Of a stretch of DNA of 64,000 nt, positions 16,191-64,000 are shown one piece after another. Below the pieces are notes generated by a model that did no database searches, was not told where the DNA came from, and saw only the letters and a list, made by a program, of their open reading frames with translations. The position numbers were made by a program, and so were the translations under genes. Each line of letters begins with the position of its first letter. Position 1 is the first letter of the stretch. Source of the stretch: Marsupella aquatica (lineage: Eukaryota; Plantae; Marchantiophyta). The stretch covers positions 5,612,476 through 5,676,475 of the forward strand of contig OZ316892.1 of NCBI GenBank assembly GCA_973895155.1. The letters are read 5' to 3'.

Positions 16191-16372
16191 AGCTATCGTC
16201 TATATGGTCCCGTCGATCAAGCTCCAAATTTTCTCCTTCGTCTCTCGATCAATTCCTCCTCGGAAAATTGCTTTCCTCCAGCAAAGTGAATGCGGAATGG
16301 GACGATCGCTCTGCCTCTTCTGTCCTCAGAAATGGCGTGGGCAGGGGCGAGATTCGGGAATGGGGCGAGGTC

Positions 16373-33005: not shown

Positions 33006-33546
33006 ACAACAGCAACACACCTGAATTGAACTCATCTTCTTTATAAATATATAACAGAGTGCCCAAGGGCAAAAATCCCAAACTGGGAGACAAGATCCCA
33101 AAGGCAAAGCAACCCACTGAAGGGGAGGAAAAAAGGGGAAAGGGCCCCAAGAAAAAAACATGCCAAGGGGTCCGTAACCCAAAAACCAAAGCCAAAGTAA
33201 CTTATAAAGCACAAAGAGAAGCTACAGTTGGGGTTTTGGCGGAGGCATCTTACTTATAAAGCCCAAAGTGAAGCTACAGTTGGGGTCTAGCTGGGCCCAG
33301 AGGTCCACTAAGCATATCTCTGCTCGAATAGAATCTACACTAGAGTTCTACACTAGAGTTGTCGGACTAGGTTATAGAGTCAAGCCTAGTGACTCTAGGG
33401 CCTGCCAAAATATTTACTTGCATGGAATGAAGTAATTTACATTGGCTTTCTTAGTGCACACAATACGTGCCATCTCCATGGACATTGGCTTTCCAAGTGC
33501 ACAAGAAAGTCTAGGATTTGGCACTGAAAACTACTGTACCCAATCT

Positions 33547-35046
33547 TCATGAAGCACTGCAGAGCTGGTTCTCGAAACTCTGGATCTTAGAGTCGCCATT
33601 GTCTTTGCTGGTGCACAAGGAAGAATTGTGGAAGTTGTGGGTGATAGCTTGTTTCGATTGACTGTCCTCATGCACGCGGAAGAATTGCTGAAATTGTGGA
33701 TCCCTGTCAAGAGCTTGCAACACATCTGGAGTTGTCCGAAGGTTCAGAGTTGCAACAGATGAGGACCTGCTTGGAATAGGTGGGAGAACTATTGCCATCG
33801 CTAACATTGACGTAGAGCCAAAAGAGTTCGGCGTCGTAAAAACGTATGGCTTGCCAAAGCCGAAATCTATTTCATACATGCCGAAGTTGTACCATGAACT
33901 GAGGCACACGTGCCTAAGTTTACTGTTCGCCAAAGCTCCCATTGATTTCCCAATCACATCGGAATCGAGCCAATCCTCCCTCTTCGTTGTTTCCAATTTC
34001 TCACGAAATCTGCGCGCAGTGGACACCAAAGGCATCTCCAAAAGCTCATCGGTGGGGATTTCGGGCGGCAAGAGAAGTGTGGTGAAGTTTGCGCATACAT
34101 CGGGAACTGGATGGTCGAGAAACCGTGCTCTCCCTTCCACAGCGCGGCTTACAAAGACCCCTTTGTCAGGAAGTACTGATGGCCGAAGCACCTCGAAACT
34201 CCTCATCAATTGAGCCGCAATGCAATCTCCGGTGCTTACGTATCCTCGGTCCTCTCTAAGGCTTTTAGCTTCCTCTTTCAGAACTTTGATTGTCGATGCA
34301 TCAACTTCGAAAACTTTCGTTTTCCATGGTCCCAATTTTGCAATACGCTTGAAGGTAACCACGACGCCCGGGTCGGGGAATAGAGCTGCGAGGGATGGTA
34401 CGTCCAGCTGCGCTCTATTGTGATCCACTTTGACGTCGGTCTCATTGGTTCGAGAGAGGTCGGACCAGGCTCTCATGAAGTTGGAGAATCCCTGTCCATC
34501 CACATGCATGTGATCGAAGGTCACCGCCAGAACCAGCCCCCCGCATTTGAAACGGGTCACCTGGACGAAAATGGGAGTCGCTCCTCCTGGGGGCAGCTGC
34601 TGCGTGTGCTGCGTCACATCCAATCCAACGAAGCTGTGTCCCTGCAGCTCCGGGACCGCTTGAAATGCAGTAGAAGCGTGCACCACGGAGTCTATATCTG
34701 CGTCCATGTATGCTTCTATGAACGGAACGCCCTCATCGTTGCACAACAGCTTCCGTGCTCCGTTCCCCGGCGATGTCTCCACCCAGCGACCAGCGAACGA
34801 GAAGAATGGAATCAAGACCTTGGACAGAGACTCTTTGATGCGTTTCACTGTCTGCGAATACACAGCATCCGACTTGTCGCCAAGTCTGTAGGCGAAAAGA
34901 CATGGAAAGAACATCTCCGCGAAAAACGAGTCGAGGATTGTTGCGTCGATGGTTTCCACATGAGCAGTCTTCTCAAGTGGTTTGACGGTGGTGTGCAAGA
35001 CATCCGTAAAAGGAGGCAAATCCAGGGAGAGGAATTGATGCGCCAT
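33547..35046 (-). CDS. BAHD-family acyl-CoA acyltransferase, 499 aa, intronless
   Basis: Single ORF with SLSKVLIPFFSFAGR, CNDEGVPFIEA, QVTRFKCGG, catalytic HxxxD (HMHVDG), SSW and DFGFGKP (DFGWG variant). Confidence 0.96.
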   Translation of the reverse strand: MAHQFLSLDLPPFTDVLHTTVKPLEKTAHVETIDATILDSFFAEMFFPCLFAYRLGDKSDAVYSQTVKRIKESLSKVLIPFFSFAGRWVETSPGNGARKLLCNDEGVPFIEAYMDADIDSVVHASTAFQAVPELQGHSFVGLDVTQHTQQLPPGGATPIFVQVTRFKCGGLVLAVTFDHMHVDGQGFSNFMRAWSDLSRTNETDVKVDHNRAQLDVPSLAALFPDPGVVVTFKRIAKLGPWKTKVFEVDASTIKVLKEEAKSLREDRGYVSTGDCIAAQLMRSFEVLRPSVLPDKGVFVSRAVEGRARFLDHPVPDVCANFTTLLLPPEIPTDELLEMPLVSTARRFREKLETTKREDWLDSDVIGKSMGALANSKLRHVCLSSWYNFGMYEIDFGFGKPYVFTTPNSFGSTSMLAMAIVLPPIPSRSSSVATLNLRTTPDVLQALDRDPQFQQFFRVHEDSQSKQAITHNFHNSSLCTSKDNGDSKIQSFENQLCSAS

Positions 35047-38000
35047 TCTTACTGAATCGTTCTCCTCCTCGATGTTCAGAATTGTCGATTGAAATTGTCT
35101 GTTGTATCTACATTGAGATCGTCTATTGTACCTACACTGAGATCAGGACTTGAGCATTGAGTCGTCGTGCGTTTCTATTCACCGCACCCAGGACGCACAT
35201 CCTGAACCTCGACCAGATCAAAGCCAACACCCTCGACTGTGCGCACTTTAACTCCGTTCAGCTCACAATAAGGCTTGGAGAACAGCGTTCAACTACAGTA
35301 GCCCTGACTTTCACGACAAGTTGCTAGATTTTGGAAAGCATCTCTCAGCTAGCCCACTCTTTTTCTTTTCTTTTTTGCCTTGAAAGGACCAATTGAATTT
35401 CATTCAAAAAGTCAACATACAGAAAGGGGGGCCCAAAAGACACCAACCCAAAGGACCAAAGGTCAAAGTGCTAAGACCGGGGCCGGTACCAGGGAAGAAG
35501 TTGGCCCCCAAAAGGGAGGCACCTAAACAAGTAATTTAGAGACTACAGCCGGAGCAGCAAACTCCTAAAGACTGGCCAGTGATCAGGTTCCGGCGGGGTT
35601 CCTTTCGGTGGGTCCGTGAGAGAGCCAATCAGTCAGTCTGCAGTGCAACTTCCTAACCTGAGATAAGATTCTGATTCACGGGGGACGTGGAGGGACAGGC
35701 GGAACTTGGAGAGCTTCATCGTGGATCTCCCACAGGCCTACCCAGGTGCCGTAGTTAAAGGACATCTCATTTCGGGCCTCTCCTAGGGTGGTCTTGCCAG
35801 CCCTAATGTGGACTCTATGTCGTGCCCAGTCCTTTCGGAGGTAAATTCCGAGTCGATGCCAGGATTTCCGAATAACCCCCTGTGGGTTAGGTCTGGTGTG
35901 TTCAAAAAAATGTGTGCTTCTGTCCTTCCACACATTCCAACAAATGATAGCCCGAAGGGTATGCCATTGAAGCTTTACCGGTGTATACCACTCATCAGGT
36001 AGTGGCACTCCAACAAAAATGTGTGCGGGCTGAAGGCGAATTGAGTTGCCCCTAGAGAATGCACAAAGCTGGAGAACACCTTCCACCCATCTCCAAATGA
36101 TCTGAGATTGATGACAGCTCCATATGCAGTGAAGTATATCTTCCTGTTGATCCAATCCACACTGGGTGCACCAAGTGCTGGTATCGGAGGGTGGTAGCCG
36201 CGGAAATCTCCAATGTTGTGTTGCCGGGATCCTGTAAATCAACTGCCACAAGTAGCAATTTTCACTAGCAGCCTGAAAAGGTAGCCAAGTATCAGCCCAT
36301 AGCGTAAGTGGGTCCGGTCTCCAGTTCAAGCTGATGGCCCATTTCTGCACCGCTTTGTGAAGGGGTCCAGAAGTTGTACCTTGAATTTCCCTCAGATGTG
36401 TAGTGTGGGTGTCCAGAAAGGGAAGCCCATCTTTCCACTCATATTGTAGCAGGGGTGAAAGGGATCCCAGAGGCCTGCCAATCGGCTGCTTGAGAATGGG
36501 AGCTCTACCATGTGATCTCACTAGAACCCGGTGTAGAACGGTACCGATCAGGGGAGCTGAGTTGACCGATTTGTAGAGGAGTCCATTTGTCACCTTGAAG
36601 GTCTGCCTTGGATGTGAAGTATCATTAAATCTCTGCCATTGAGTTGTGACTCGATTCCGCTATATTTGGTATTCCCAAATGAACAGAGTTCCACAGGGCA
36701 TGGTAGCTTCCATAAAGACAGGAACGAGTTGCTCAGGCTCGCCATGTAGTTCTGGTACTCTCCTGAGGTTGGCAATAAGCTTGCGGTAGGCACGGGCGCA
36801 ATTCCCTGGGAGTATCAAATTCGAGCCTGCCTCCCATTCGATGAATCTTCCCTGTACATCTAGGACATCCTGCATGGAAATAATCCCGCCCTCCTGATTT
36901 TTCTCTGTGGATTGCTACGACATTTGGCTGCATTAGCATGGATGTGATTGATGTGCGGGGTCCAAAGAGGAAGATCACGCCATCCTTCTAAATGAGCAGG
37001 GGGTGTGGGACGGAGGTTCTTCTTGATGACATTCCACCCTGTACAAACATTGGTCCATACCTTCAAACCATTGTGTGGCAATGTGTGGCAGTCTCGGGTG
37101 GCAGTATGGGAATACCCAAGAGAAGTCTTCCCCTCCCCATTTTTGCTTAGAGAGTTGTTTAATCTCATGCTGTAGAATTCGACGCAGTGGGTAATCCCCT
37201 TCGGCCAGTGCCCAAGTGATGAAATTGCCTGCCAATGCCCTGAATTGCGCCACCAATGAGATGAGTCCTAGTCCCCCCAGCCGCTTTGGTCGAGTGATAG
37301 TAGCAAAGGCAACCCTCGATCGGGCCTTCTCGTTCTGCCCTGCCCACACGAAGGCAGTGATTTTCTTCTGAAGTGTAGCCAGGGTGTGCAGCTGCCCAGT
37401 CTTGATCGTGAGCATAAACCAAAGAGTGCTCATGACTAAATGGTTAGCGACCGTGACACAAGCAATAAGGGACCCCGAACTCCAACGGACCTTGTCTAGT
37501 CTGGATTCAAGCTTCTCCGCTAAGTAAGGAAAGCACCATTTGTTCTTTAGACTGAGATACTCTGTGCCACAGGAATTCCTAAGAGCTTAGTGGCGGTGGC
37601 TTCGGTCTCCCAACTCCAGGGCAAACGCCTGAATTGAATCGGGAGTCTGCGTGGGGAAATAAATGCTACTTTCGTTTTCTCCCAAATGCAAACGAGTCCG
37701 GAAGCTGGGCCAAAAAGGTCCAAGATCTGCTTACAATTGTCAACATTCTCCATGAAAGCGCGAATGAGCATAGCCAAGTTGTCTACATATAAATTGTGCA
37801 CATTGTGTACGCGTACAGGTTGAATGTCGACACCCTGAATGGTCCCCCTATCGACCGCCCATTGTATTATCCTGCTAAGGGCATCAATTGCAATAAGGAA
37901 CAAAAGAGGTGATAGGGGGCATCCCTGTCTGACCGATCGGGCTAGACTAAAGGATGAAGCCATTTGCCCATTGAGAAGTACTGCCGAGGATGCTGAGGCA

Positions 38001-38058
38001 TGGGTAGCTCCCAAAAATTGGATGAGTAGCCCGTCGAAGCCAACCTTCCCCATGAGAG

Positions 38059-38345
38059 CTCGGGGGGTTGACTATCAAAAATCTTAGGAACCACGTGCGA
38101 TCCAAAATAGGTATTTTTGGCAGATTTTCACTAAATTTTTAAAAAGCGTAGGAGGCAAAAGAAGGTATTATAAACTCATGTTTATAGAATATTCTTTAAT
38201 ATATACCCTTTATAAAGTAAAATAGATTATTAATATTGAAAATAGAGAGTATTCTTGGAATATTTTCTTTATAAAATAGGTCTATTTATATTAGGCTAGG
38301 ATCGCACGTGGTATCCCAAAATATACACTTAGTTAACCCCCCGAG
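38059..38345. mobile_element. 287-bp MITE with 8-bp TSD (hAT-like TSD length) inserted in the LINE RT
   Basis: TIR CTCGGGGGGTTGACTA / TAGTTAACCCCCCGAG (1 mismatch); inner inverted ACCACGTGCGATCC; TSD CATGAGAG at 38051-58 and 38346-53; removal restores KAFDKLEWPFLMALMGKVGFDG. Confidence 0.93.
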
Positions 38346-38608
38346 CATGAGAGCCATCAAGAAAGGCCATTCAAGTTTGTCGAAAGCCTTGGTTACGTCT
38401 AATTTCATCAGAATGTAATCCAGGCCAGAGACGTGAGCATGGTGTAACATTTCGTTGAGTAGCATCTAGGAATGGTGAATATTCCAACCTAGTAGAAAGG
38501 CAAATTGTTGTGGTGAGATGAACCTCTGTAGGACCGGAATCAGACGTAGCTAAAAGGCCTTCGCGCCAATATATCTTGTAAACCACATTCAGCAAAGTAA
38601 TGGGCCTT

Positions 38609-39252
38609 CTGGAAAGAACGCAATGCGGCGGCTTACGATCAATCTCATGGTAAAATCCCTATCTGGGTGGTCCTATAGAGGACTGCGGACCATCTCAAAA
38701 ACATGCTTAGGTCCAGCAGCACTCCAAAAAAGAGCCGACAGATCCAAAGAACTACTCAAGAGTTGACTAACATTCTCCACATTGTGGATCAGACTGGTGA
38801 CACTGGGACCATTGACATAGGTAGTCATGAAGAGTAAACTCTGGGGCTTTGCTTACTGTGCTTGGACTAGCCTGGGGCATGCTAGGGAGGATTGTGTTGC
38901 CAAAATTGATAGTACTTTGTCTAGGAAGGACAACCAGGTTTTTTCCATGGAGAGTGGACAACCCAGTGCTCACTTGAAGGCCAGTGTTGGGAATAATGAG
39001 ATTAGTAAGGCCAATGTTGGGAATTATGGGATTAGTAAGTGGCTTGGGTTGGATAGGATGAGCCTTGGCGGATCTAGTTGGGATTGTGGCAAGGATCCTC
39101 TGCTCACGGAGGTTGGTTGCTACAGGTGGGTGCGGGGTGAGGGCTTTGGGGAGCCCCCCTCTCCCTGCGTGTTTGTGCTCTGTCCTTTTTGCCTGGGTGG
39201 GAATTACCCCCGGTGCTAACTGACGAGGCTGGCCCCCCTTCTTTGAAAAAAA
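38609..39252 (+). mobile_element. 5'-truncated second LINE inserted antisense into the host LINE RT
   Basis: 10-bp TSD AATGGGCCTT at 38599-608 and 39253-62; A-run at the 3' end; begins with the ORF2 C-terminal motif WKERN; removal restores YLTNKRPITLLNVVYKI. Confidence 0.88.
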
Positions 39253-42200
39253 AATGGGCCTTTTGTTGGTCAAGTACCACTGATCATCCTTCTTTTGTAG
39301 GAGTACAATGAATCCCCTAGTAATCGCATCAGAGAAAACCCCCTCAGCCATTTCTTGCATAAGCGCACCAAGCAGAGAGGGACCCACAGTGTCCCAATGC
39401 GCCATGAAAAACTCCACCGGTACCCCATCTAGACCCGGGCATTTGTTGCACACCAGCGCTGTCGTAGCCTTTCCAAGCTCCTCCAACGTGAAAGGCTCAT
39501 TCAACATCTCTTGGTCCTCCCTTGTGATCCTTGTTTTTTGCAGCTCCAGCGGGAGCTCCAGAACCCTTGCAATGTGTTCCCACTATGGACTCGCAGATTG
39601 GCCCAAGATATCCTTGAAAAAAGTAGTGGCAGTATCAGCCATCCCGTCCCAATCGCTGACTAGCAGATTCTCCTTAGTGAAAAGTTGAGTGATTTCGTTT
39701 TTCATGGCCAATCCTTTGAAAGTTCTGAAGAAAAGCTTGGAGCATTTTTCCCCATCGCCAATCCACCAGGACTGCAGAATGTAGTCCATCCACTGGACTT
39801 TCTCAGCCTCAAATTCCTGCACCAATGTTTCAGTCGCCTTCAGAGCATCTTGATTTTGAGCTATGTGTGGGTCCCTCTCAAATTGAAGCTATGCCTGGGT
39901 GAGCGATGTACGAAGTTGTGTTTCCCGCAAGCGTCTCTCCAGGGCCTTCCTTTTCCCCCAACTTCTGTCAAACTTCCGTGCCTTCCCCAGACAATGAACA
40001 AGAGTCTTAGCTGTCGATAAACCTCCCCTCCAACAAAGCTCTTCCTCTCTTTTCCACATTCTTTCCATGCGCTCCCGGTACTCCGCCTACTTCTGGTGGC
40101 TGACGTTCATGCGGTGTTGTGAGGGGTGCTTGACAGGCACCACCGGGGTGATCAAAGCAATGACAAGGGCATGATCCGACAAGGGGATCCCAGGAATAAT
40201 AGTGGAAGAGATATCAAATTTACCACTAACCCCCCTGGAGGCATAAATTCTGTGGAGCCTTCTCAAAACTTGGCCTTCCAGGTTTTGTAGTTCTTGCATG
40301 GCAAGGGCATGGCAAAATCTTCTCTTATTATCCCAACTGAAGCGGAGATGTCCTTGTTGCTCCTGGAATGAGTCCACTAGGTGAAGTTGCCTCATGAGAT
40401 GGCACCAAGCTCGCCTTTCACTGCCTGATATAGTTGTGCCTGGCCCCCAGGGCTCTGATCGGAAGATTGTTCAATCATATTAAAATCCCCCATAAGAATC
40501 TAGGTGAACGATGGGTCCAGCCGATTGAAAAGCTCCTGCCAGAGGTTCGTCCTCTCCCTAGCCAAGTTTGGTGCGTAGATTCCAAGAAGACCGACCTTGC
40601 CCAACCCATCATGCACCAAGCAACACCAAACAGCTCTCCCTGAGTCAATCACTCCCTACAAAATGACAAATTGACGGAGCACTGGTGTAATGGCAAGAGC
40701 TATACCCCCCTGGCCAGCATAAACGTTATCGTTTTGGATGGAGTGGGCTCCATCCGTCGCAGGCGCACAAACCCAGTGTGCAGATCTCCAAACCTCTTGC
40801 AATTTGCAGATTCTGCGAGCACGCAATTTATGCTCTTGAATACACACCACGTCAAGGATATGTTGCAGCTCCTCCAAGATGAAACGGGCTCAAAGTCTGC
40901 ATCTCCGGGAGGCTAAGCCCCGCATGTTGTATGTGAGAATTGTTAGTTTGCACATTGGGAGTCGGAGGGATTCTATGGCAGTGCGTACCTATATGTATAG
41001 GTTCTAATAAGCGCGGTCTTTTGGCAGGGGCGGGGGCAGGGGGTGTATGACCCCCAAGGAGAGAGGCAGCGGGTCTGAGTCAGTTGCAGAGGGTTCTCTC
41101 GAAAGCGGACATTTGCGTATAGTAACGTTTGTCCTGTCAAAAGGAGGTGGTGGGGATGTCGTTCTTTCAATAGGAATCACAGGTGCAATAGAAGACGTTA
41201 CCTCCACCTCGCCTGTTTGGGGCCTTGCAATCTGTGAGACGGGAGTTTCACAAACCTGTGTAGGAAGGACCACCCACACCTTTTTTTTGGGCCGTCTGTG
41301 GGTGATTGGAGTATGTTTGGGAGAGGTAGTATCAATTTGCACAATGGGGAGCATAGTAGATTTGTTGTGCGTAGGTTCCACACTGCCAATTCTCTCATTG
41401 GAATGGACAGCCTGCAGACTCCTGCTTGCACAAGATATATCGTCTGTAGTGTTGTCGCATTTCCTAGGATACTTGGTGGTGGCACCTCTATTCCTCTTCC
41501 GGGAAGATCTGTTGTGGTGATTACTGGAGGACCGGTGCATGGCAGAGGATGACGGGTGAGTACCACTCGTTGCCACCTTCTCTTTCTCCAGAGTAGCCGC
41601 TTGATGTGCTAGGTGTTGCAAGTCCAGTTCCTCCTTCTGATGTTCTTCAGCTCGCACCCTCCAGTAATCCGCCTCCTCTCTGGCCTTACGGGCCTTCTCC
41701 TAGTAATCGTGCAGCACCACTGCATCCAGTCGTACTCTTTGTTGTGTGGATGTTGCGATAGGGTGCTGGGCATCTTCTCCTGGGGCGTTGAAGTGGAATT
41801 TGTGGCCCTTGAAGATATCAGGTCGTGGCTGCTTGCACTTTGCTGCGTAATGCCTGTATGAGAAACAGAAGCAACATCAAAGATTTATGCTGCTGTAATC
41901 AAAGGAAACAGTGGTGACACCTGGGCGACTAAGTTGAAACTTACCGTGTGCTGGGAAGATTTTGAGTGTGGTTTCAACAATAGCTGAAATGTGCTGCCCC
42001 TCAATGCCTGGTGCTTGCTTTGCGTGTATGAGAACCGTCCGATGGGTGCCACAACGAATTTAATGTACTCGTAAATCTCAGGACTGCCTTGTGGAATGTA
42101 AACCGTTACCAAATGTTTGAAGTCCTTGGCGTTGCATGGGTCGAAGCTTGGCGTGTAGTCGTTCATGGCTGCAAATCTGTCAAGTGCTTTAATAGGGGAG

Positions 42201-43167
42201 GCACTCAAAAGATTTTTCTTGATGTGGTCCCCTACATTAGCGTCAAATTGCACTACAAAAAGAGCGTGAGCCAGCTCGTCATGTAGAGTCAGTTTGATTT
42301 CGTTCTCCTGATTGAAGGCCGAGATCCAGTCCTTGGCTTGTCTCAAACTGAATTTGGACTCGAAGCCAAGCACCACCTTATTCCCAAAAATCCTCCTTGT
42401 GCCTAGCTGAAGAATGTCCGTTGGAATATAGAAAATTTATGAATTCAGAACCGTGGGAATATTGGATGTTTGCTTACTAGAATGAGGTTTACTGGTCGCT
42501 GCATTCTAGATTGCTACATCGTGGCCAGCTGATGCAGATTGCTGTGATGCCGGTCTTGCAGTTTGTCGAGATTCGCAACTGGCCATACTCCTACCGAAGA
42601 GGGCAGCAGGTCAAATTGAAATGCAGGATCCCCCCCAGCCGTCCGCATAGTAGGTTTACCCAAATTAACAAAGCCAGGATCCACCACCAAAATTGACCGA
42701 GTTGGAGCTCCAGCTCAGTTAATCCAAGCTTGTCAATCGGTATTCGCTACTTCGATTGATACACCTAGTGTCAAATGCGAGCTTGGGTGCCAGGGTATAG
42801 GAAAATGCAACAATTTCAAACAATTTGTGTAAGTTCTTCATAAAAAATGGTGAGTTCTTGCAGACTGGAGGATTACGAAATGCTAAGCGAGATAATCTCC
42901 AGGTGTGTGGAAAAACTTCATGTTACCCCAAGTAAATCAGAGTTAGCTGTTGGTACTGGACAAAGGAAGGTAAACGTAATCCCGTCGTTAAGCTATCCGG
43001 TAAGGTAGGACAAAAGGCGTCGAGAGGCTGAGGATTGTCATGCGTTTGAAATTCATTCAAACGGTAGGGAGGGGAAGCCGGAAATATCGTGAGTTAACTT
43101 GCCCCATTCCCCCTAAGTCAAAAAACAATGAATTACCAGCCCAACCCAATAGCAAAAAAAGACTAAG

Positions 43168-43799: not shown

Positions 43800-45280
43800 C
43801 AAGATCGATCTATTTGGACAATAGATTGAGAGTCTCCATTTTTGGACAGAAGTCTCCTTAGTTCCCACTCCAAGAAGGAGTTCACACGAAGATTATGTGT
43901 CAAAGGTACTACTTTTTACTACATTTGTTCCCTTGTTGCCCCGGATATGCAGACTAAATCAGTAGGGGGGTCCAATTGCCCTAGAAAAGAAAGTTGCCTT
44001 GTGTCTGAACAGATTGGAAACTGGGAATTACTTGTTAGGTTGTGCTGACCTACTTGGTACGAGTGAAGCTTTGGCAAGTGTTGTTGTGCGAGACTTCTGC
44101 CAGGCAGTAAAAAAATTGATTCACCCTCTTGTTGTTCCGAGAATCAAGTGCTCTCTCGGATAGCAGCCAAGTTTGAGCAAAAGCACGGTATACTTTCTTC
44201 AAGGGAGCCATTGTTGGCTCCAATGTCCCCATCATTGCACCCTCGATTGCACCTTCTGGTGATCCAGCACCCTTCTATAACAGGAAGGGATTGCTATCCA
44301 AGTTTGAGCAAAAGCACGGTATACCTTTCATCATGGGAGCCATTGATGGCTCCAATATCCCCATCATTGCACCTTCTGGTGATCTTGCACCCTTCTATAA
44401 CAGGAAGGAATTTTATTCTGCTTTGTTGTAGGGAATTGTTGACACATAGACAACTTACGGGACTGGGAATTTGGTTGGGGAGGCTCGCTTCATGATTTTA
44501 CCCTTGTTAACTCATGGAATGAAAACAATTTGTGGGTATTACCTGCCCTATAACTTTACGGGACTGGGAATTTGGTTGGGGAGGCTCGCTTCATGATTAT
44601 ACCCAGGTTGTTAACTCATGGGTTAGAATGAAAACAATTTGTGGGGATTATCTGCCCTATAAGCATATTAATGGTGATGGAGCCTATCCCTTCAGGACCT
44701 GTATGAATGTTCCTTTCAAAGGATTGAAAGAGTATCTTGACCCTGTGAGAGCCCATTGGAACTTTATCCAAAGTTCGACAAGAATGTGTGTAAACCTTGC
44801 ATTTGGGGTCTTGAAATGATGGTGGCAGATTTTATTGCAACGCATTGAAATGGGATTGGATCATGTGGCTGATCTAGCTGGAGCTTGCATCTGTTTGCAT
44901 AACTTGTGTGTTATGCACAAGGACTTTGTGGATGAGTCACTGGTAGAGAAAGCCAAAAAGTGGCTAATGGATCAGTAGATTCAGAGCTTATGGGATTTAA
45001 GACATGCAGGGACCAAGGAAATTTTTTACTATGGAAAATATGAAGTTAGTAGAGTTACCATTGATTTAGAGGAGCTTATTAGAGTGACTGGCTTAGCAAA
45101 CAAGGATGACCATGATGAGGTACATATTTTTTAGGAAAGCAGCTTTGAAAGCAGGGGTGACAAATAATGCATTGGGAGTTGGCCAAGACCTTGTTTGCTT
45201 GCCATTTGCGTGAAAATGTGAAAATGCCACATGGTTTCTATGAAGAGGACTCTGACCATTCTAGTATGGCAAGTGAGTAA
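43800..45280 (+). pseudogene. PIF/Harbinger (HARBI1-like, DDE_Tnp_4) transposase relic
   Basis: Across frames: EFTRRL..TTFYYICSLVAP, KKVALCLNRLETGN..CADLLG.SEALASVVVRDFC, GAIDGSNIPIIAP, FYNRK, FGWGGSLHD, GDGAYP, WNFIQSSTRMCVNLAFGVLK.WWQIL and ACICLHNLC. Multiple stops and two internal tandem duplications. Confidence 0.9.
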
Positions 45281-45842: not shown

Positions 45843-48800
45843 CTACCTTGGTCTGAACAAGTAGGTTTGCCCACCTCTCGTGAGGCAAGTAGTTCCCCTG
45901 GCCAAGACAAGAATCAAAAAAACAATTACCTTGTTTTTTGGCATTCCTTTCAAATTTGTCATCCATCTTCCCTGGGAAAGCAATGACTTGGATAACCTCT
46001 GGGTTTGTCCAGCGTAGTCACAAACTACTATCCTCCCCTTCTTCGTCTTCGTCCTTGAGTTGCACCACCTTTTGAGCCTTTTTGACTTAGTTTCTTTGCA
46101 TGGGGCCTCTAGGCTGCCCTTCTTCTTTTGGGTAGCGATCGCCATTTCTTGTCCAGGCCCCATGGCTTCCCGAATCATCCTGGCTGCTTCATCCTCTACC
46201 TCCCATGACATGGTAATAGGTGGAGTTCCGAATGTAAACTGTTTTGTGCCCCAGTTTTCCACAACTTTCGCAAGGTACAACCAGGGTCGTCCTATCAACA
46301 CCCTAAATGAGGTAGGGTTCACCGGCTTCATCACAATGTAATTAATGTTGAATGCAATACCACCAATCTCCGTGCGTATTCCTCGAAGAATACCTGTGGG
46401 AACTACCTGGTAGCCGTTAGCCATATTCAATACCCTACCAGTCAATTATGGTTTGAATCCCCAAGCCGCCGCTGTTGAATCAATGAGTATGCATACCCCA
46501 GACCCTCCATCGATTGGTACATGCATAACCTTTTCTTTATTGATGATGACTGGTAAGCAAGGGGCTCCCCTATCCTCCTAAATCATCATGACATGCGTAC
46601 GAGTGGCTACTCTAGGAAGCCTTGGCTTCCCGGCAATGGCTTTTTTCAATTGCTTCCGAAAATACGGGCTATTTTTTAATAATTGACCCACAGTAGCCGT
46701 AACGCTTGATTCCAACACATCCTTTGCCAAGTTGTATGGCACCAGCTGTTTCCCTGTGTCATCCTCCTGGGGTAATTTAATTGCTCTAAGAGGATTCTTC
46801 TGAGTTGGTAATGATTCTGGTTCCTTTGGTTCTAGAGGTGTGCTTGGTGAAGTCAGTGGTGACACACTTCTGTCCTCCACTGTTTCCATTGAAGCGGAAA
46901 CAATTTCCTCCTTCATTCGCTTGACAGCTCTCTTAATATCCTTCTGGAGTGCAACCTCATTCTCGTCCTTTTCCAGCTCTACCAACTGCTCCTTCACACT
47001 AGCCGTGACTGCCGGAAAAAATAAACTGGGATGCGTTCGATCAAAATCACTATCCTGGGAAGGACTGGGATCACCACGTACGACTTGCGGGTCCTCAGTG
47101 ACAGGGGCTTTGCCGCTAGAACCCGAAGACGTGGAATCAGACGCATCTTCCTTCCACTGCTTCTTTTTCTTGGTAATCCCCTCCCACCTTTGCTTCCTTC
47201 TGGTGGATCTAGTGGACACGCGGTAACAATCGGCATCAACTTCTTCTTCAGAATAAGTGGACAGGGCGTCTGCTTCATCGTTGGAAGGTGCAAATTCCCC
47301 TCGTGCTTCTTTACGCCATCCTAAGTCAATATGATTTACCTGGGCTCCTCCTGGCATAGTTCCTGCTGGCAGTACCTTTGGTGCGGGTTTGACAGGTACA
47401 GCAACCATCCCGGATAACCAAATAAGGCATTGGGTAAGTATATGCCCTTCTCCTTTGCAACCCATACAAAGCTTGACTGGCTGACCATCCGCCTGCTTCC
47501 TTGCATTGGTGCACTCCCGAGAGAAGTGACCTGGTTGACCACAATTATAGTATGCTGCAAATCTCTGAACATTTGGTTGTGGAGGTGTAGTTGGATTTTG
47601 AATGATACATCTCCCCTGCATTGGTTCTCAATGCTCCCCACAAAGAGGTGGGTCGGTTAGCCAAATCTCGGGCTCCGGCCTCACTGATGCCACACACACT
47701 ATCCGCGACATCTCCAAGTATGTACTCCACCTCCAACTCTCCTATCGTTCCCTCGGTTATCAATCGAACATTCTTTGTACCACGCTTTGGACAAACATCC
47801 TTGTGATGTCCGGTGGTATAACAGTGAGCGCACCATACTGAGGTGTCATCGGCTGCCTCCCTCTTCTTCGGCTGGGAGTTGGCTAATAATGTTTTTAACT
47901 GCTCTGTGATCGCTGTCAATTGATCCGGAGATGCTTTCTTAGGATCCAACTTGGTTTTCACCTTTTCTGCAACCTTCTCTTTCTTCTTGATTTTATTTTT
48001 TTTACTCTTTTCATCATCCTCCGAACTGGAAGATGTTTCACTCTTACTAGTATCACTCTCAGAGCTACAACTCTCCTCCTTGGCTTTCTTGGATCGCTTC
48101 TTCTTGGCCTTTTTCTTGCCTAATTCCTCGTCTGAAGATGAATCGTCAGATTTATAGTGTTCTTTTTGGCTCGTGATATCAGCATTGATGTATAGCTGAA
48201 TATCATGAATCACCTCTGCCAAAGACTCCGGATTCCCCTTCCAAATTGCGAAACTCATCTTCTGCGGTAGGGCATTAACCAACCAGTGCAACTGCATTTT
48301 GTCTGATGCATTGGTCTTGGTTCGTCGCACCAATTTGTGGAATCGCTCCAAAAATTTCCGAAAAGACTTGTTCTCCTTGAATTGAAGCCGTCCTAGCTTC
48401 AACATTGCCAATTCAGACGTCCCAATGGGACAAAATTCCTTGACAAACAGTTGCTTGAAGGTGACCCATTCATTCTATTCCCCTGGTTCCAAATTGGAGT
48501 ACCATGGTCGAGCCTCACCCTTAAACAACCCGGGTAAGATTTGCATCTTGATAGCAGACTCTCCATTAGCAGTTGCAGTCCCATCAAACTCCTCAAGCCA
48601 GTCATCCGGGTCCTCCTCATGCTTACCATGAAATGCCTTGTAATGGATTTGTGATCTCTGATTGAGCCGTGGTGCTGCTCGCCCACCAAATTGTGGATCC
48701 GGCTCACCCATCTCTTGCACCGGTGAACTGGGTTGGGTACTGGGCGAGTTACTACTCAACAGATCCCCTTCCTCGTTCTCCAGTTCCACTCCAAAAAGCA

Positions 48801-48925
48801 CTTTGTGAACCGCCGTTGCCAATTGCAGTCTTCACCCTCTTGGTCTCCTTCCACCTCACAATTTGCTGCAACCGCGCTTCTTCCCTCAGTGTTGCTCGCT
48901 CTTCCCGTGGTGTGAATTTGTTCAT
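45843..48925 (-). pseudogene. Ty3/gypsy (Tat-like) gag + aspartic protease, decayed; RT/RH/IN absent
   Basis: Retrotrans_gag-like FHGKHEEDPDDWLEEF..ATAN..GEARPWYSNL..WVTFKQLFVKEF; three CCHC knuckles (CAHCYTTGHHKDVC, YYNCGQPGHFSREC, CMGCKGEGHILTQC); protease PIDGGSG...MANG...LIGRPWL. Confidence 0.9.
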
Positions 48926-48966
48926 CACCTAACACTGCGTAACAAACAATTCACAAGTACGAATGC

Positions 48967-48984
48967 CCCCTCCATCTAGCGCCA
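48967..48984 (-). other. Primer-binding site (TGGCGCTAGATGGAGGGG), probably tRNA-Asn
   Basis: Lies 4 nt after the LTR terminus ...CCACA (48989). As recalled, it is complementary with about one mismatch to the 3' end of plant cytosolic tRNA-Asn(GUU) (...CCUCCUUCUAGCGCCA). Confidence 0.75.
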
Positions 48985-48988
48985 AAAA

Positions 48989-51900
48989 TGTGGTGCATTT
49001 TCCAAGACCTCTAACCCCAAGAACTACCCTCTACTTATCATAAACCACTTGTTTAGGTCTGTCCTCTTGCCGTATGGCAGCTATTTGGCTTGGAAACGCG
49101 ATCCTCTCCTTCAATCCACACTTACCGGACCAGTTCTTTCACTGGGCTTGTGAATTGTGCACAACTGAGACACCTAATTCCTCTTTAACTTCTTAAGGTA
49201 TATTTGTATTCAGCCCCTGGAATGTACCTCTACGGCTTAATTTCTTAAGCTGGCTGAAGGTCTTTTTCAGACGGACTCAACCCACACTTCACCGACTAAA
49301 CACTCTCAATCCTCACTTTTCTCTCAGAGTTTGATTGGGCAGTCTCCAATCAAGACAATGCGATTGTACTTTGCTCAACAGTTCACCCTATCTGACTTAA
49401 ATCGATCAAGCAACAGATATCACAACACTCAACTTCTTGGATGGCAAGAATCTGCAAACTAGGCAACGAGGCCAACTCAATTCAAACAATTGCTTAGAAA
49501 TCCAAGGGAACTGGTAGTTTACTGATATCCTGCGGTCTAGATTTAGCCGAGAGCTACTTGTGCTCACAACAATACAGATTTTACACTAAAGCCTTGACTA
49601 AGAAAACAACCCCTCCCAGCCACGCTGCCCGGGTTTTTATCCTTGCAGCATGACTGAAAGAAGCGCGGGAAGCCTACCCCTACAATCCTGCCTTGCCACC
49701 GCGATAATCCTCTTTATTGAACAAAAAACAAAACTAATTTGCCTAAGCCGGAAACCCGATGGATCCGGACCTCTAACACAATCGAACTATTCAAGCCGAC
49801 AGAGCGCTACTTGCCCTGTCCACATCCTACAACGGCCGTGCCCTCTTGGCCCAAGCCCTTCTCCTTCCGCCACGTCCTCCTTCCAACTGACGACTGGCCC
49901 GCCTTAATTGTCAAATGACCGGTGGTAATCCTGAGCCATCCGACTCTGCACCTTCCCCTGTACTCGGCTTCGGCTGACTACCCTCGGCCACATTAACTAC
50001 GGCTTCGGGTTCGGCCTCGGCTTCATCCTCCTCGGCAACGGCCTGGAGAGCTTTTGCCTTAACTTCCTCAATCCAAGCCTGCTCCCCGATGCGCTCGGTC
50101 TCGATAATCCACGGCTTCACGTTCTGGGCGTCCATAGAAGCAGTACCATCGTCTGAACCTATCACCGTAGCTCCAAGTTGATCCGCAGTACTTACCTCTA
50201 CCATAGCTGCCTTCAGGGCCACAGTACCGCAATGTGAGCGGCCATGCTCTCGACTTCCTCTGGAGTGGCTTTAAGGGGTTTAACTTTATTATCGCCCGGC
50301 CCCATGAACGTCTTTGCCAAATCTGCCACTAACTGCATGGCTTTGCCCCCAGTCATGCTTGACAACAGTGAGCTCGGCTTTGGCTTTGGCTTCACTGTAT
50401 TTCTGCCTACCATACTACTGACGGGCAGCCTTTCAGTTGGTGACCCATATCCCGCTTTGGCATACTTCTTCAATTTCTCTGTTTGATTGTCGGCACGCCT
50501 TTGCAACCCGATCATCTTATCCTTGGCCTCCTCCAACTCCTGAGATACGTCTTCAACTTCATCGTTAAGCCATAATATCTTAGCCTTGGCCGCCTTCAGC
50601 TCCTCATTTAAGATCTGCATGATCTCCAACTCTTGCTTATCTGCAGCTGCCTTCAAGGAGTTATTGATGGTTTCCAGCTTCGTGACCTCTTCCTTCCATG
50701 CCTTCTTTGTCTTCTCTATATCCCCCTAAAGCTCCTTGCGTATTTGTTGGGCTCGGCTTAGGTGATCATTGGCCGCTGTACTCAGGGCGTCCTCATGTTT
50801 CTCCCGCATGGCATCCAGCTGATCAAGTAGCTTTTCATGCTTCCCTTGGGCTACGGCCAAGACCTTCTCGCTCTGAGTGGTCTGGTCTTTAGCCGCCTTC
50901 CTAAGCCTATCGACTTGCCGATTAAGACCCTGTACCTCCTCCCTCGAATCGGCTAACTCCAGCTGCACCTTTGTCAATTTCTCTTTAATCTGCTGGTTAT
51001 CCAATTGGTAGTTGTCCAATTGGTTGTTCGCCATCTCTAATTCCTGCTACTTAGCCAAGAGATCCTGTTGTGCTTGTTGATTCACCCTTGATTTAGCCAC
51101 CTCTGTTTGCATGCTGCGAAGCCGAGCAATCACTTCCTCCTTCTTCAATTGCTCTAATGTCATTGCCTCCTCCAGTCTCGTCTGATCAGCCACTTCTTTT
51201 CTAAGAAATGGCCCGGATTCCAACTCGTTGCCAAAGATTTCTAAGGCTAAGAGTCCACACATGTCTCCATACTCCTTAGCTCGATTTCTTGTGTAGTTTG
51301 ACCTCCTAGGTGATACTGGCATCTGCCATCGGGGTCGTCTCTCCCAAGCCTCCTCTCTCAGCTGATCAAAGTCAGTGAGAGGTTTGGCCTGCTTCTCACT
51401 AAGCCGTCTTATTTCTTCCGGCCACTCTCCTCCTGGTAGCTGGCATTCCTGTTCTGCATTCCGGGCCCCCCACTCCTTAATCCTCTCTTGTAGCCCAGCT
51501 TCAGCTTCCTTCATCTTGTCAAATTCTAATGGCGTCACATCTGGTGGAGGAGATTCTGGTGTTTTCTGGTCCTCCGGCTTGCCATAGAAGACTACAAAAC
51601 CTTCCCATCATTCTAACTCCTGGCACCGGCCTCTCCCCGTGATCGACATAATCGTCGTCGTAGTCATCCACATTAACCTGACTGTACCTAGCATGCCGAC
51701 CTCTTCTCCAAAGCCCCCGATCTCTTCCTCCGAATATTGTTGGGCTGCTGTTGGTTGATTTTCCTCCACAGGTCCCTCCACTTGGGCTCTGTTAGAAGCT
51801 CTTAATACCGGCCTCTCCTGGCTTTGGCTTGACTCCTCATCTGTCTCCGAATCCATTTGCTCGTCATATTTCTTTCTCTCTTCGGTAGTCATCTTCCTCT

Positions 51901-53570
51901 CGACCAATTGGATGCCTGCATATGGATTATTACGAGTAGGCCGGCGCAACGGATTTATCACCACATCATATGTTACTACCTCTGGCTCCTTGATAGGGGA
52001 ATGCTCCCGTTCTCGTGTTGTCTACGTTGCCAACCTCCTCCCGTGGCGTCGTTTGCTTAGAGGCTCCTCATCCTCCTTCACCTCCTCAAGTGGTGTAGTG
52101 ATCGGCATCCGCTCCTGTATAGGCAACACTGGTGCAAAAGACTAGCTCCTTGCATATTGGCAAAGTAATTGCAGATGGTACCCTAGTTTGGATACCGCTC
52201 CTTCCCCAATGCTCTACTTCTCTTCATTTAATGCTTTCTTCAACTGCATTAAGAGATAGCCATTGTAGTCTCGGTTTGCATCGTTATTCTCCACCAAAAA
52301 CACCTGGGCTTTGCCGATTTCTGCTCTTGGCAAGGTACAATGCAACGTGACTCTCAGGAAATCAATCAGCTGCCCTATATGCGGGTTGGTACATTGATTC
52401 CTGAAAAGCCCATTCTTAGTGGAAGGCCCTGGAAATGACCTGAACTGGTCATCCGTCAACGTCTTCCTCTACTCCACCTTAGTCTTCCTTCCTGCTGGTA
52501 AAGAGAAGACGGCTTTGATAAGCGCAGGTGTTAGTTCGAACACCTTTCCATACAGCAGCGTCGTGTTGGAAGAAGCCTCCCAGCATCCCACGAAGTCCAA
52601 CAGATCCTCATCTGGTATGTCTACCATCCTCCAGGACAACCTGACAAAGCCCTCCAACCCAGTGTCATTCATATATCCTGCATATTTATTATCCTGAACG
52701 GCACTGAAGACCTCATCCTCATCTCTGGAAAACTGTAATTGTAAATCGGCAGGTAACCTGTCCGCCCACCTTGTCATGGTTTTATCCTCTACAGCCCAAT
52801 CTCTAACTGGCCCGGCTTCCGTCTTGATTGGTCTCTCTGACCTAGTTCGCTTTGCCAGAGTTGCGGATGCCGACCTTCCCTTGCGCTTCATCTCTTCAGT
52901 GCCTGAATACTCCCCAAGAATAGCTTCCTTCGTCCACTTTGCAGTGTGACCCTTCAATTCCCAAAGTGGCTGCCTTGCGTTCTTGATATATCGCCTCCCT
53001 AATCCCCACGACCTTATTCTCCCGAATCAGCAATTTGTCAAGCTCCACACTGGTGGGTGTCCACGAGAACTTTTCCAACACCTCCTCCGTATCTACAAAT
53101 GTCGTTTTGTGAATTCCCCACAATCACGCAAGCTCCGCTCGTTCTCTAGCCGCGCGCTCCGGCTCAACGTCTTCATACGTAGGTATCAGCTGCCTTGCTT
53201 CTTCAAGCAAACAGCCCCAGAACTTCCCTACCTGGTTCACCGTGTTCATTCCACTGAATGCCAAGAACTTGCGCAATCTCCCAATCTACCACATGCACTC
53301 GACTGACAGTCGCTCCTCAATGTCGAGACCATGTACACGAGAACACGAAATGGCAGAGTATTGGTCTCTTCACTCCGAAGCTGCCACTTAGGGGTCTTTG
53401 TGATCAAGCCTGGATTAGGTCATAACTCCAACTTAATCCCGCCGGATCTCAACCGTTGGATCTTTCCCTTATCATCTAACACGTAGAAATCGGCATCGTT
53501 CTTTATTGTTACCTTATACCCTATTATTTTAGGCTTAATTATTACTTCGTGATCCTGGCAAGGCATCACA
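48989..53570 (-). mobile_element. Putative 4582-bp LTR containing a long ORF
   Basis: On the minus strand it begins TGTGATGC immediately after a PPT and ends GCACCACA (7/8 inverted match) just before the PBS. No second LTR copy is present in the window. Confidence 0.65.
49791..53330 (-). pseudogene. Decayed ~1100-aa retroelement accessory ORF: PMD-like N-terminal domain plus long coiled coil
   Basis: Consecutive minus-strand ORF pieces (53123-52896, 52957-52469, 52459-52214, 51964-51608, 51538-51047, 51034-50726, 50656-50213, 50222-49911) separated by single stops or frameshifts. LLDFVGCWEASSNTTLLYGKVFELTPALIKAVFSLPAG resembles the plant-mobile-domain core; the C-terminal half is E/K/Q-rich with heptad character. 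The ends are approximate. Confidence 0.7.
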
Positions 53571-53580
53571 CCTACCCCCC
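53571..53580 (-). other. Polypurine tract (GGGGGGTAGG) abutting the LTR start
   Basis: Minus strand reads TTTTT-GGGGGGTAGG-TGTGATGCC. Confidence 0.6.
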
Positions 53581-55319
53581 AAAAACAAAAAACCCCTCAC
53601 CCTGACAAAGAAAAAGAAACAAGGTTGCCTGTTGTTGGGAGTTTGGCCACTTGTCATTCTATTAAAAGAGTTAGAAGAAAATTAATGTCTTTACATTAAT
53701 TTTTTTTTAAACAAACGGGCAAAAGAAAGGGGAAGCCTAGGTGCATGTAGGCATTGTGGGCCAGGCTAGGCACCCCCTCAGCACGGGCTATCACATTGCA
53801 TTGTGAGCGAGGCACCAGGCTACAAAGCACTGTGGGCAATAAGCAAATTGAGAGGTCACCTTTGGGTGGTCCAAACATAAGGAAAATGCCCTTTATATAC
53901 AATGGCTTAGACAGATTAATCCCGTCCAGATCTGCTTTTGTTTAGCTAGCGGACTACTACGCTTAGAAAAGGGCAGGATTGAGTAATATAATTTTTGATA
54001 GAATGCATTGCCACTAAAGATGTGTTTGAGCACTCATCAAAACCTATCACACATAGTATAATATCTAATGCAAAATTTTGTATCTAACTCCTTTTCTCAT
54101 AGTTTCAAATTCTCAAATTAAACCAATCCGATAGAGACCACCAGTTTATAGCACAAGTCATGGCAAATCCAACCAACGACCACCATTCATATGGTACATC
54201 CCAGAAGTAGGTCAAGGACCACCATTGTCTTGTACATGACAAAAACCTACTCAAGTAACAATATCTCTCACATATCTCAAAAGCCACTCAAGGCTCATGA
54301 ACTTCATTATCACTCCCTATGGCAATCCCTGTAATATTCCATTTTGATATTTTAGTTTGCTGCATTGCATTTAGTTAAGATGTAGAAACTAACTATCCAG
54401 TCATGCATCTAAGTAATGGTGGGTAAAAAGAAAGTCTTGCTGAATTTGTGTAAGTGTCACATGGTCAATTTAGCCAGGTTGTTGATTGTTCTCTAGGTTT
54501 TTCACAATGAAACTGTGAGTGTCAAAATTGATCAGAATCATTAACCTAGCTATACTAATCAACTAAGATCACTCACTGATCATCCACTTATAAATGTCAA
54601 GATGAATAGTCAGGATCAGAAAACCACACAAGCAGAAACCAGTTGACAAATACCCATAAATATAGAAAGGCTTTTGTGCTCAACTGCTCTGCATCCACCA
54701 AGGTTGTTGAGTCTAGTACACAAGTGGTCTTAACTCATCTAACTTAAGAGAATTTAACAGCAAACAGTGACATCTTTCTGAGAGCACAAACAGTGGCAAG
54801 TGATGCTCCCGTTGACCAAGCCAATGAATTATGCAACCCCCCTGGCCCATGACACCTTTAGACCTTCACTCACTGACACCATGTCATTTCCAAAAAGTTA
54901 TTGACAGAAACAAATTTGACCTCCAACATCTCCTGTCCTCCAGCAGAATTGGCTACTCTTGGGCTCATTAGAAGCGGCTTGGAAAAATCCAGTCAAATAT
55001 CTCATGAAGAATAATAGAGAGCCTTGTGAATTTCTAAAAGCAATCCATTACTTATTGTCCGCACTTTTTAGCAGGTAACTTTGACATTTAATGTCTCCTT
55101 CGACATCAAATGGAATCTTCTATTCATGGGATTGCTAGAAATTGCTTTGAAAAAATCTTTTGAATTAGTCTAATATAGTAAAATTTCATTGACAATGGAG
55201 ACCTACGAATTCTCAGAGATATATGTCAAGATTGTATTCTTGCCACATTTTTGTCATATGTGTAATCTATACAATATGAGTAGAAATAGGGGTTTGTTGC
55301 AGTCCATCAGAGTTTCAAT

Positions 55320-58839: not shown

Positions 58840-60157
58840 TCACAATGCATCTGACATCAGGAACGTCCGAATCCGCTGCAACAATTCAGCTTTCACATTG
58901 TCTGGCACCATTGCTGCAGCCAACCATACCACCAACAACATTAAGCCCCTCGCAGTCAGTTCTTCACTTATATGCTGTACCTAAAGTTTTTAGAAGACTG
59001 GCGTGATTGACCACGAAATTACAGGTGACTTGGGGTCTCATTTTTAACATCCCACCTCGGCCTTTAGGGGTGATGTTGCGTACAATGTCGTCCACAGTGA
59101 TGTTTCCTCGCCCCTTTTTCCTTGTGAATGCTCGACATTGGGCTTTGAGTTCGTCTTTCCATCCACATTCGATAAGCCTTTCCCTCAAGAGCTCCTTCAG
59201 CCTCTCCTTCTCGCCACTTTCTATCAACTGCGAACGCAATTTCGTTAAGATCAGCCCGTAGCTTTGAATAAACAAATTTCTGCTCAATTTAGAACTGATG
59301 TACGTCTGTCTCCCACGTGGACGGATTCTGCAAGATTCATCGTCCAGTGCCCATCAAGAATTGGGGCCAACCGGACGAACACCGGATGCCACAGGAATGA
59401 AGGTCACCTTAATATTAATGATCTCTTGAAGCGTTGGCTCGGCTTCCTTGTCTTCATCCGCGTCAGGAGTAGGTGGACGGTTAATTGACGCCCTCCTTCA
59501 ACGACAAACAACACAAAACAATCGGCTATCAAATCCTTCAGCTCTGAACACCACCTTAGTCATTCCAGAACTAATCAAAGGAACGAAGAGACACAGACAA
59601 CGTTGACGACGGGAAGTCTGGTCAGGCAAGGGAGGAGAACCAACCGCGGAGACAATGTCTAACCAGGAAAATCTCATGACCTCCCTAGGACACAATTCGC
59701 CAAAACTAAACGGTAAATGAATTCTACCGTTCTACCTCTATACGAAACAAGACCGCATCGGGCATGTTGCTCGTAGACTCTGGTGATCTGCACCATCCAA
59801 TGATGTAAACCTCCATCGACATTACAACCCCACAGACAGACCCCTAACAAGGGCAACCCCTATCTCAATTTCCCGATAAACCCTAAAGCGGAGACAAGCA
59901 AGCCTCGCACAGACGAGAGACACCGAAAGCTTTCGCAGGCAAAATTCCGAGTCAAAACAATTTCACTCAATTCAAGGGCCTCACATCAAAGCGAGAGACA
60001 GACCCTCACAACAGCAACTCCAATACCACTTTCCAGATAAACCCTAATGCGGAGACGAGCAAGTTTCGGACCGACTCGCAACAACGAACGCATTTCGCAG
60101 GCAAATTACGAGTCAAAGAATCCATTCCTTTCCGTTCCACAGAAGAGAGCCTTACAT
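58840..60157 (-). CDS. ENY2: Transcription and mRNA export factor ENY2/Sus1 (SAGA DUB module/TREX-2), 111 aa
   Basis: Coding exons: AT 60157-60156 (alternative 59986-59985), 59495-59408 (G+RASINRPPTPDADEDKEAEPTLQEIINIK), 59227-59056 (LIESGEKERLKELLRERLIECGWKDELKAQCR...TVDDIVRNITPKGR) and 58913-58840 (AMVPDNVKAELLQRIRTFL). All introns are GT-AG and the total is 336 nt. The first exon is inferred. Confidence 0.93.
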
Positions 60158-61436: not shown

Positions 61437-61892
61437 GGGCCACTTTACAAGATGAGCACAGCAATTTGAGTACTTTCTACCAGGGCCCTAACAGAGCCCA
61501 ACTTTTTGTGTGCTGTAAGACTCTAGACCAATCCAAGACAGGAATCATAGGAGAAAACGGCCTGCCCATTTTCGCATCTCCGGAGATCCAATAGTCTAGC
61601 ACCCAAATGAGAGTCCCAAGCCGGCTAGCCCGAGCTGGTCCATACCAAAATACAGGTTCGATCATTCCCGTAGCTCAACTTGCCGCGCCAGTCTTCTAAA
61701 GCAAGGAGCACAAAGGCAGGCTAAAACAACAGCAGTGATAGAGTCCCAAGCCGGCTAGCCCGAGCTGATCCATACCAAATGCAGGTTCGATCATTCCCGT
61801 AGCTCAACTTGCCGCCAGTCTTCTAAAGCAAGGAGCACACATGCAGGCTAAAACAACGGCAACAATTGATTGCCCTTCTTGTAAAGTGGCCC
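61437..61892. mobile_element. 456-bp Tourist-like (PIF/Harbinger) MITE with an internal 130-bp tandem duplication
   Basis: Perfect 16-bp TIR GGGCCACTTTACAAGA / TCTTGTAAAGTGGCCC; TTA TSD at 61434-36 and 61893-95; near-identical units starting at 61611 and 61741. Confidence 0.93.
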
Positions 61893-63269: not shown

Positions 63270-63962
63270 TCATTTTCGCAGGGCTTTTCTTGGACCCTTC
63301 GAGCTCTTCTTTCCAACTCCAGCCTTAGATACACGAAGGCTCTTGTGTACTGCTGCTAGCCGAGCCAAAGCAGCTTGCTTAAGATCAGCTCTGTAACCAT
63401 TTTCTGCTACCTGCGAGAGTGATCCAAGTAAGTGAGAAACTCGCACTCGACCAGTCATACATCGGTAACAACGCTCAAATTTCGTCTCTGTATCGTCATT
63501 CGCAACGCTGCCATCACAACAAAAATTGCAGGAGAAATGAGGGTAACTAACCTGGTTGACGACAGCACGAGCCATCTTCCTGAAATCCCTCTTCAACACT
63601 GACGTGTTGACGGACTGGGCAGGCTGGGTTCCCTTCTTGGTCTTGGTGGTAGAAATGGCCACATTGAGCCCCTCACCGGCCGCTACGATGGCAACAGTCT
63701 TCCTGTTTGCCAAACCTGCAGGAGCAGCGGCAGTGTCAGCTAAAAGCAACTCCCCCAAGACCCATGCACTACCATACCAAATAACCCATCAGACAACAAT
63801 CTGCACACAAGCATACTCACCTGAGTACTTGAAGGTGTTCAAGTTGTACAAGTTGTTAGGCTCGGAACTGAACTGCACCGAGGCGTTGTTGTTTCCGTTC
63901 CTCTTTACCAAGAAGCTGTTATTTTTCTTCACAAGCTGCCACAACAAATCGGAGGACGCCAT
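63270..63962 (-). CDS. RPL28: 60S ribosomal protein L28 (eL28), 148 aa
   Basis: Exons 63962-63821 (MASSDLLWQLVKKNNSFLVKRNGN..FSSEPNNLYNLNTFKYS), 63715-63552 (GLANRKTVAI...KRDFRKMARAVVNQ) and 63410-63270 (VAENGYRADLKQAALARLAAVHKSL); GT-AG introns; a probable 5'UTR intron acceptor (CAG|G ATG) just before the start. Confidence 0.97.
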
Positions 63963-64000
63963 CCTGCATAGTTTCCCATCTCTTCGGTTAGATTGAAAAC

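Follow-up and report, generated by a model that had tools for sequence, protein, structure and literature searches.

A decayed gene inside a probable 4.6-kb long terminal repeat of a truncated Ty3/gypsy element in the liverwort Marsupella aquatica

Introduction

Can a plant retrotransposon carry a large protein-coding gene inside its own long terminal repeat (LTR)? This question is raised by a 64-kb stretch of the Marsupella aquatica contig OZ316892.1 (hereafter, the window), in which an earlier note had proposed an LTR of 4.6 kb with a large open reading frame (ORF) inside it. All coordinates given here are those of the whole window, and the element is read on the minus strand. The best explanation, which we consider probable, is that the sequence represents the 5′ LTR of a Ty3/gypsy retrotransposon, now truncated, and that a decayed gene of ~1,140 codons lies inside it; the protein of this gene, likely formed by a DNA-binding domain of the PMD (plant mobile domain)/VANC fold and a coiled coil, would help the element to resist silencing. 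The feature is real and family-wide: an accessory gene of a known kind is found in a new place, and the link of its protein to anti-silencing proteins is weak but pointed.

Boundaries of the LTR

The 5′ LTR (48989..53570, minus strand; 4,582 nt, TG...CA) was delimited by its termini, their inverted pairing, a step in contig depth with mixed flanks at 53570 and the primer binding site (PBS) lying directly behind its 3′ end. On the minus strand, a purine run (53580-53571) is followed by TGTGATGC from 53570, GCACCACA ending at 48989, TTTT, the PBS-like TGGCGCTAGATGGAGGG (48984-48968) and gag, all of which the earlier note had located correctly. The two LTR ends form an inverted pair with 7 of 8 bases matched, and a comparison of the 8-mers of the interval 53570-48989 indicated that the only partner of the 53570 terminus is the end adjoining the PBS. 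Inside the interval there is no further end-like 8-mer when one mismatch is allowed, nor does a PBS-like sequence recur there with up to four mismatches, the sole other match in the window being at 16226. The earlier note had reported no internal polypurine tract (PPT) or LTR boundary between the ORF and the PBS. The PBS itself (48968..48984, minus strand), situated 4 nt behind the LTR, is not of the tRNA-Met type; it may be of the tRNA-Asn type, a primer used by Athila, TatII and Retand. Primers other than tRNA-Met (Asp, Asn, Arg, Lys, Trp) are a trait of the Tat/OTA non-chromovirus lineage.

Additional evidence comes from other copies of the family. The stretch is contained in five public sequencing runs from three studies (labelled X1-X5), one of which is possibly the source of the window itself, and contigs were finely mapped over 53300-53660. 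The summed contig depth falls in four runs from 1094, 18530, 30084 and 1105 at 53560-72 to 26, 74, 206 and 0 at 53573-85, and then to the level of a single contig. Among the loose contig ends listed for this region (24 of 70), those placed exactly at 53570 belong to two contigs in X2, five in X3 and four in X5, none of the six from X4 being at this position, and four contigs of X2 end at 53572. These loose ends, of 102-244 nt, show an agreement of 52-62% only; consequently, different flanks join one terminus, and the 5′ end of the family is at 53570. The TG boundary that had been proposed there is thus reproduced in other copies, with mixed flanks in X2, X3 and X5. The 5′ LTR of an element is delimited by its 5′ terminus and its PBS; the ORF, found wholly between 53570 and the PBS, is consequently placed within the LTR, barring a family that is itself a stable composite.

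A composite is what one alternative to this layout would require: the true LTR would be short (~0.9 kb, 49900-48989), with the ORF either internal or in a second, inserted element. Extra ORFs usually lie in the internal region (PMC7264820, PMC6317226), X1 shows a depth dip in 49676-50009, and there is no second LTR within the 64-kb window that would allow a direct comparison, all of which favour this possibility. By contrast, besides the family terminus with mixed flanks at TG 53570 and the lack of any partner terminus or PBS from there to 48989, no self-similarity is observed between the two ends of the 4.58-kb interval, the sequence is repeated without a break from 53570 to the PBS, and dips similar to that of X1 also appear inside the ORF. 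Moreover, in all four runs the mean depth of the ORF bins equals that of the non-coding 3′ bins (0.74-1.08 times), while it is 2.5-4.4 times that of the gag-protease bins. Such depth, by the method's own statement, does not measure copy number, and the first bin past the PBS reaches the height of the LTR bins, so that these ratios are taken as agreement only. The ORF and the 3′ part are also joined in other copies by at least four joints (49310/51912, in all four runs; 49885/50017; 49885/50376; 49031/50401), among 15 of 83 joints listed plus 12 of the 20 rows of one further table. We therefore regard a short LTR as improbable, and it is highly likely that the whole 4.58 kb is copied as a single LTR. 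The family end at 53570, the depth of the ORF and its joints with the 3′ part give independent support to the central claim of the earlier note. No mixed flanks at 48989 or near 49800 were found among the loose ends listed (24 of 1,700), no two-LTR copy, target-site duplication or solo LTR was seen in the contig data, and no relatives with genomic context were found.

The purine run in front of the LTR (53571..53580, minus strand), placed behind a T tract, resembles a PPT and is either flank or a short PPT remnant. It is unusual all the same: by criteria chosen after it was sighted, a comparable 10-mer stands in front of 0.45% of the window positions and, with the T tract, of a fraction of 6e-5. 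As the DNA upstream from 53586 is single-copy in all the runs mapped, the 3′ internal region of the family is not located at that side, which makes this copy a 5′ LTR bordered by flanking DNA. For the same reason, deducing the LTR from a PPT-to-PBS interval, as had been done previously, is a weak route. The unique flank contig starts at 53551 in X1 and X4 and at 53544-5 in X2 and X3, as would be expected if the 10 nt were present in a small number of copies or if the border of the homopolymer varied. It is possible that the run is a short PPT remnant, the LTR boundary being unaffected either way. In X5, a contig of depth 3 (53588-53651) tracks the flank and departs from it 17 nt before the LTR; it may represent an empty site in that sample.

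Other observations concern the LTR as a repeat. Its terminal ~48 nt (53523..53570, minus strand) are common to a wider set of related elements, as indicated by a depth peak and by loose ends before 53523 in three contigs of X2, eight of X3 and five of X4. Both termini (53523-53570 and 48962-48998) are common to further element families, which diverge directly behind them. LTR copies with large internal deletions also exist; that of 49310-51912, seen in all four runs, spans 2.6 kb and removes most of the ORF.

The remainder of the element

Behind the PBS there is a decayed gag with three CCHC knuckles (47360..48930, minus strand; PF03732, E 1e-11; PF00098, E 1e-6), followed by an aspartic-protease-like region (46203..46577, minus strand; IDGGSG ... 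LIGRPW) with an in-frame D-G-G-S motif, for which the Pfam Asp_protease match reaches no better than E 0.21. Beyond the protease the element breaks off, approximately at 45920..46000, where single-copy contigs are identical to the window up to 45947 and depth rises in the next bin, and the reverse transcriptase, ribonuclease H, integrase and 3′ LTR are absent. The TG...CA inverted ends followed by a PBS, together with a gag containing a capsid domain and a zinc knuckle, are those of Ty3/gypsy elements, and it is very likely that this is a truncated retrotransposon of that group and that the stretch is its 5′ LTR.

The decayed reading frame

The sense ORF (49912..53342, minus strand; ~1,140 codons) contains nine in-frame stops in its two main pieces and, in the window copy, at least two to four frame changes. 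In the main frame (53026-50216) there are 7 stops in 937 codons; the two remaining frames have 58 and 61, and the mean over 2,000 dinucleotide shuffles is 48 for each frame (P=0.0005). No stop interrupts the 118 codons of the tail piece (50270-49915; P=0.004), and two are present in the 147 codons of the N-terminal piece (P=0.06). With these two pieces the ORF, which has in-frame ATGs at 53294 and 53249, reaches 3.43 kb; the decayed frame of ~3.4 kb described previously is thus real. It begins ~230 nt inside the LTR, close to the ~240 that had been reported, and ends ~920 nt before the LTR end, rather than ~800. This non-coding 3′ part (48989..49911, minus strand) shows no stop depletion, with 13, 20 and 22 stops per frame for a shuffle mean of 16.9. 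Among the difference sites listed (40 of 1,491), one of the nine stops coincides with a position at which every contig of the four runs has a different base and, consequently, that break is private to the window copy.

At the very start of the LTR, the first 100 codons from the ATG at its fifth base (53267-53566, minus strand) contain a single stop, whereas each of the remaining frames has 10 (P=0.02), and other copies bear frame-breaking indels there.

Expression of the gene

The order of the candidate signals bears on how such a gene could be expressed. The only TATAA word of the 4,582-nt LTR (53514..53518, minus strand), 52 nt from its 5′ end, is a candidate ORF promoter, and a TATAA word is also present where diverged subfamilies have their loose ends at 53523 (mixed contigs). 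A T-rich stretch with AATAAA at 49718 (49713..49740, minus strand), 190 nt behind the ORF, is the sole such signal of the 3′ part and a candidate poly(A) signal. The GATAAAA reported near 49640 is indeed present, at 49641. However, the sole T-rich stretch with AATAAA lies upstream of this proposed TATA, and the only TATAA is at 53518, so that the placement of the ORF in U3, as originally proposed, is one possibility of two: the ORF could be in U3, if another promoter lay further downstream, or in an R region of great length.

With the chances roughly even, we propose that the gene is a small transcription unit of its own, with its promoter in the first ~230 nt (TATAA, 53518) and its poly(A) site near 49718. 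In this model, any LTR copy could produce the mRNA, and the genomic RNA would read through the poly(A) signal near 49718. Both LTRs of a new copy are regenerated from a single U3-R-U5 set during reverse transcription; each insertion would therefore carry the gene twice, and recombination between the LTRs would leave it in solo LTRs.

It is also conceivable, although rather unlikely, that the same LTR-borne gene lies in U3 without a promoter of its own and is expressed, like nef or sag, from the 3′ LTR only, through a spliced or internally started subgenomic RNA, the 5′ and solo copies being silent passengers. In its favour, U3 usually accounts for the length of long LTRs in plants, and the proposed TATA-like GATAAAA lies behind the ORF. 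Additionally, spliced subgenomic RNAs are known for the extra ORFs of Bagy2 (PMC7264820). Against it, a GATAAAA downstream of AATAAA is in the wrong order for a TATA and a poly(A) signal (order according to PMC3601003), although plant signals are loose, and the 3′ internal region of the family, where the acceptor would be expected, was not recovered.

The encoded protein and its possible function

The protein would consist of a conserved globular domain of ~210 aa (52145..52800, minus strand), possibly similar to PMD/DUF1985(VANC), and, behind an acidic low-complexity linker, a predicted long coiled coil of ~250 aa (50447..51199, minus strand) with no Pro and 64% E/K/Q/L/A/R, for which Pfam returned weak coiled-coil families only, below the cut-off. 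Homologues with 20-37% identity indicate a conserved protein family; one of them, of 787 aa, has the same domain-linker-coiled-coil order, and two are unnamed proteins annotated in the liverwort Calypogeia fissa.

In a blind structural search with the predicted domain model, VANC21 (9lnk_A) came joint first of 48,161 chains; the resemblance is weak, but its alignment, of 115 residues, was the longest of the 50 listed (the next being 93). It has been reported that VANC and the PMD of MAIN/MAIL1 share a fold (PMC13547354; bioRxiv 10.1101/2024.09.27.615353), and that Tat extra ORFs combine a PMD with a coiled coil (PMC4408406). Weighing against this assignment, Pfam PMD (PF10536) did not match the query at E<=10, nor any of the 16 homologues scanned; VANC21 was absent from the top 50 of a search with a poorer model, and no sequence similarity was detected between VANC and the ORF protein. 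Thus, of the PMD-like protein suggested by the earlier note, the part that stands is a weak but pointed structural lead to VANC21. We consider it somewhat more likely than not that the domain has a PMD/DUF1985-type fold.

Alternatively, the LTR layout could be right and the protein an unrelated helical accessory (structural, env-like or a coiled coil associated with the particle) that plays no part in silencing, which we consider a lesser possibility. There is no Pfam match and no Foldseek match at E<=0.001, and extra ORFs form hundreds of unrelated groups, with only 21% matching CDD (PMC6317226). By contrast, the one solved structure with a reported PMD fold ranked joint first, the domain and coiled coil follow the order of the Tat PMD-coiled-coil ORFs, and no long hydrophobic stretch is evident by eye in the translation.

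If the domain is of the PMD/VANC type, the protein might bind the element's own DNA as an oligomer, in a VANC-like manner, and keep the element unsilenced. Such an anti-silencing activity would be the most likely function, although we propose it tentatively. More speculatively still, a Ty3 family of the liverwort lineage may have taken up a VANC/PMD-like anti-silencing gene in its LTR, in the form of a self-contained transcription unit. Each LTR, even a solo one, would then carry both a counter-defence protein and its DNA target.

Other features of the window

A decayed LINE-like (long interspersed nuclear element) sequence occupies 36000-42450 (minus strand), with a reverse transcriptase match (PF00078) at 37550-38071. 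The host genes, all on the minus strand, encode PsbO (14932-16190), a Costars-domain protein (23900-26060), a BAHD-type transferase (33547-35046), EnY2 (58900-59460) and ribosomal L28e (63270-64000). Small local tandem duplications are found at 32597-33008, 44158-44662 and 61610-61861.

Significance

Plant LTRs are treated as non-coding, and the reviews consulted place extra ORFs in the internal region only. A gene of ~1,100 codons in the LTR would survive solo-LTR recombination, the main route by which the host removes such elements. It would be misinterpreted by gene annotators and by LTR finders whose length limits are short; two homologues, for instance, are annotated as unnamed Calypogeia proteins. 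If the speculative reading given above is true, the LTR would be a route for extra ORFs between 3′ and 5′ internal positions, and retrotransposons of early-branching land plants would possess the PMD/VANC fold, at a great distance from the seed plants in which it has been described. With such a fold, the protein would be a retrotransposon counterpart to VANC anti-silencing, and it would bear on the debated origin of PMD, for which both Gypsy elements and host genes come into question (PMC5418596).

Comparison with known systems

Protein-coding sequences inside an LTR, duplicated with it, are known from sag of mouse mammary tumour virus and lentiviral nef. These, however, have ~200-320 codons and act on immune cells, whereas here an unrelated sequence of ~1,140 codons is found in a plant retrotransposon.

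The PMD-coiled-coil ORFs of Tat/Ogre elements (PMC4408406 section 6; PMC6317226) are closer: they are also large sense ORFs upstream of gag, with a globular domain and then a coiled coil, in elements with a non-Met PBS, and LTRs of up to ~5 kb, comparable to the 4.58 kb observed here, are known in these lineages. Their ORFs, however, are internal, located either after the PBS and ahead of gag or after pol and ahead of the 3′ LTR, while this one precedes the PBS, inside the LTR, and has no Pfam PMD match. Early-branching Tat lineages and moss Tat-like elements have been reported without extra ORFs (PMC4408406; PMC6317226). In gymnosperm TatII elements, sense extra ORFs occur in 23% (5′) and 26% (3′), a pattern expected of an LTR-borne ORF (PMC6317226 supplement table 5). 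Rice Retrosat2/FRetro3 similarly combine LTRs of >3 kb with an extra ORF0 upstream of gag-pol, but belong to the Tekay chromovirus lineage, and in the passages of PMC3485330 consulted the LTR and ORF0 are described as distinct components, without ORF0 being assigned to the LTR.

Finally, although VANC sits on a eudicot Mutator-like DNA transposon, whereas the present gene belongs to a retrotransposon and has no detected sequence similarity to it, VANC21 of VANDAL21 (PDB 9lnk) is likewise transposon-encoded, likewise joins a conserved domain to variable low-complexity regions, is predicted to oligomerise through a coiled coil (PMC13547354) and shows a weak structural resemblance to the LTR-borne protein over 115 residues.
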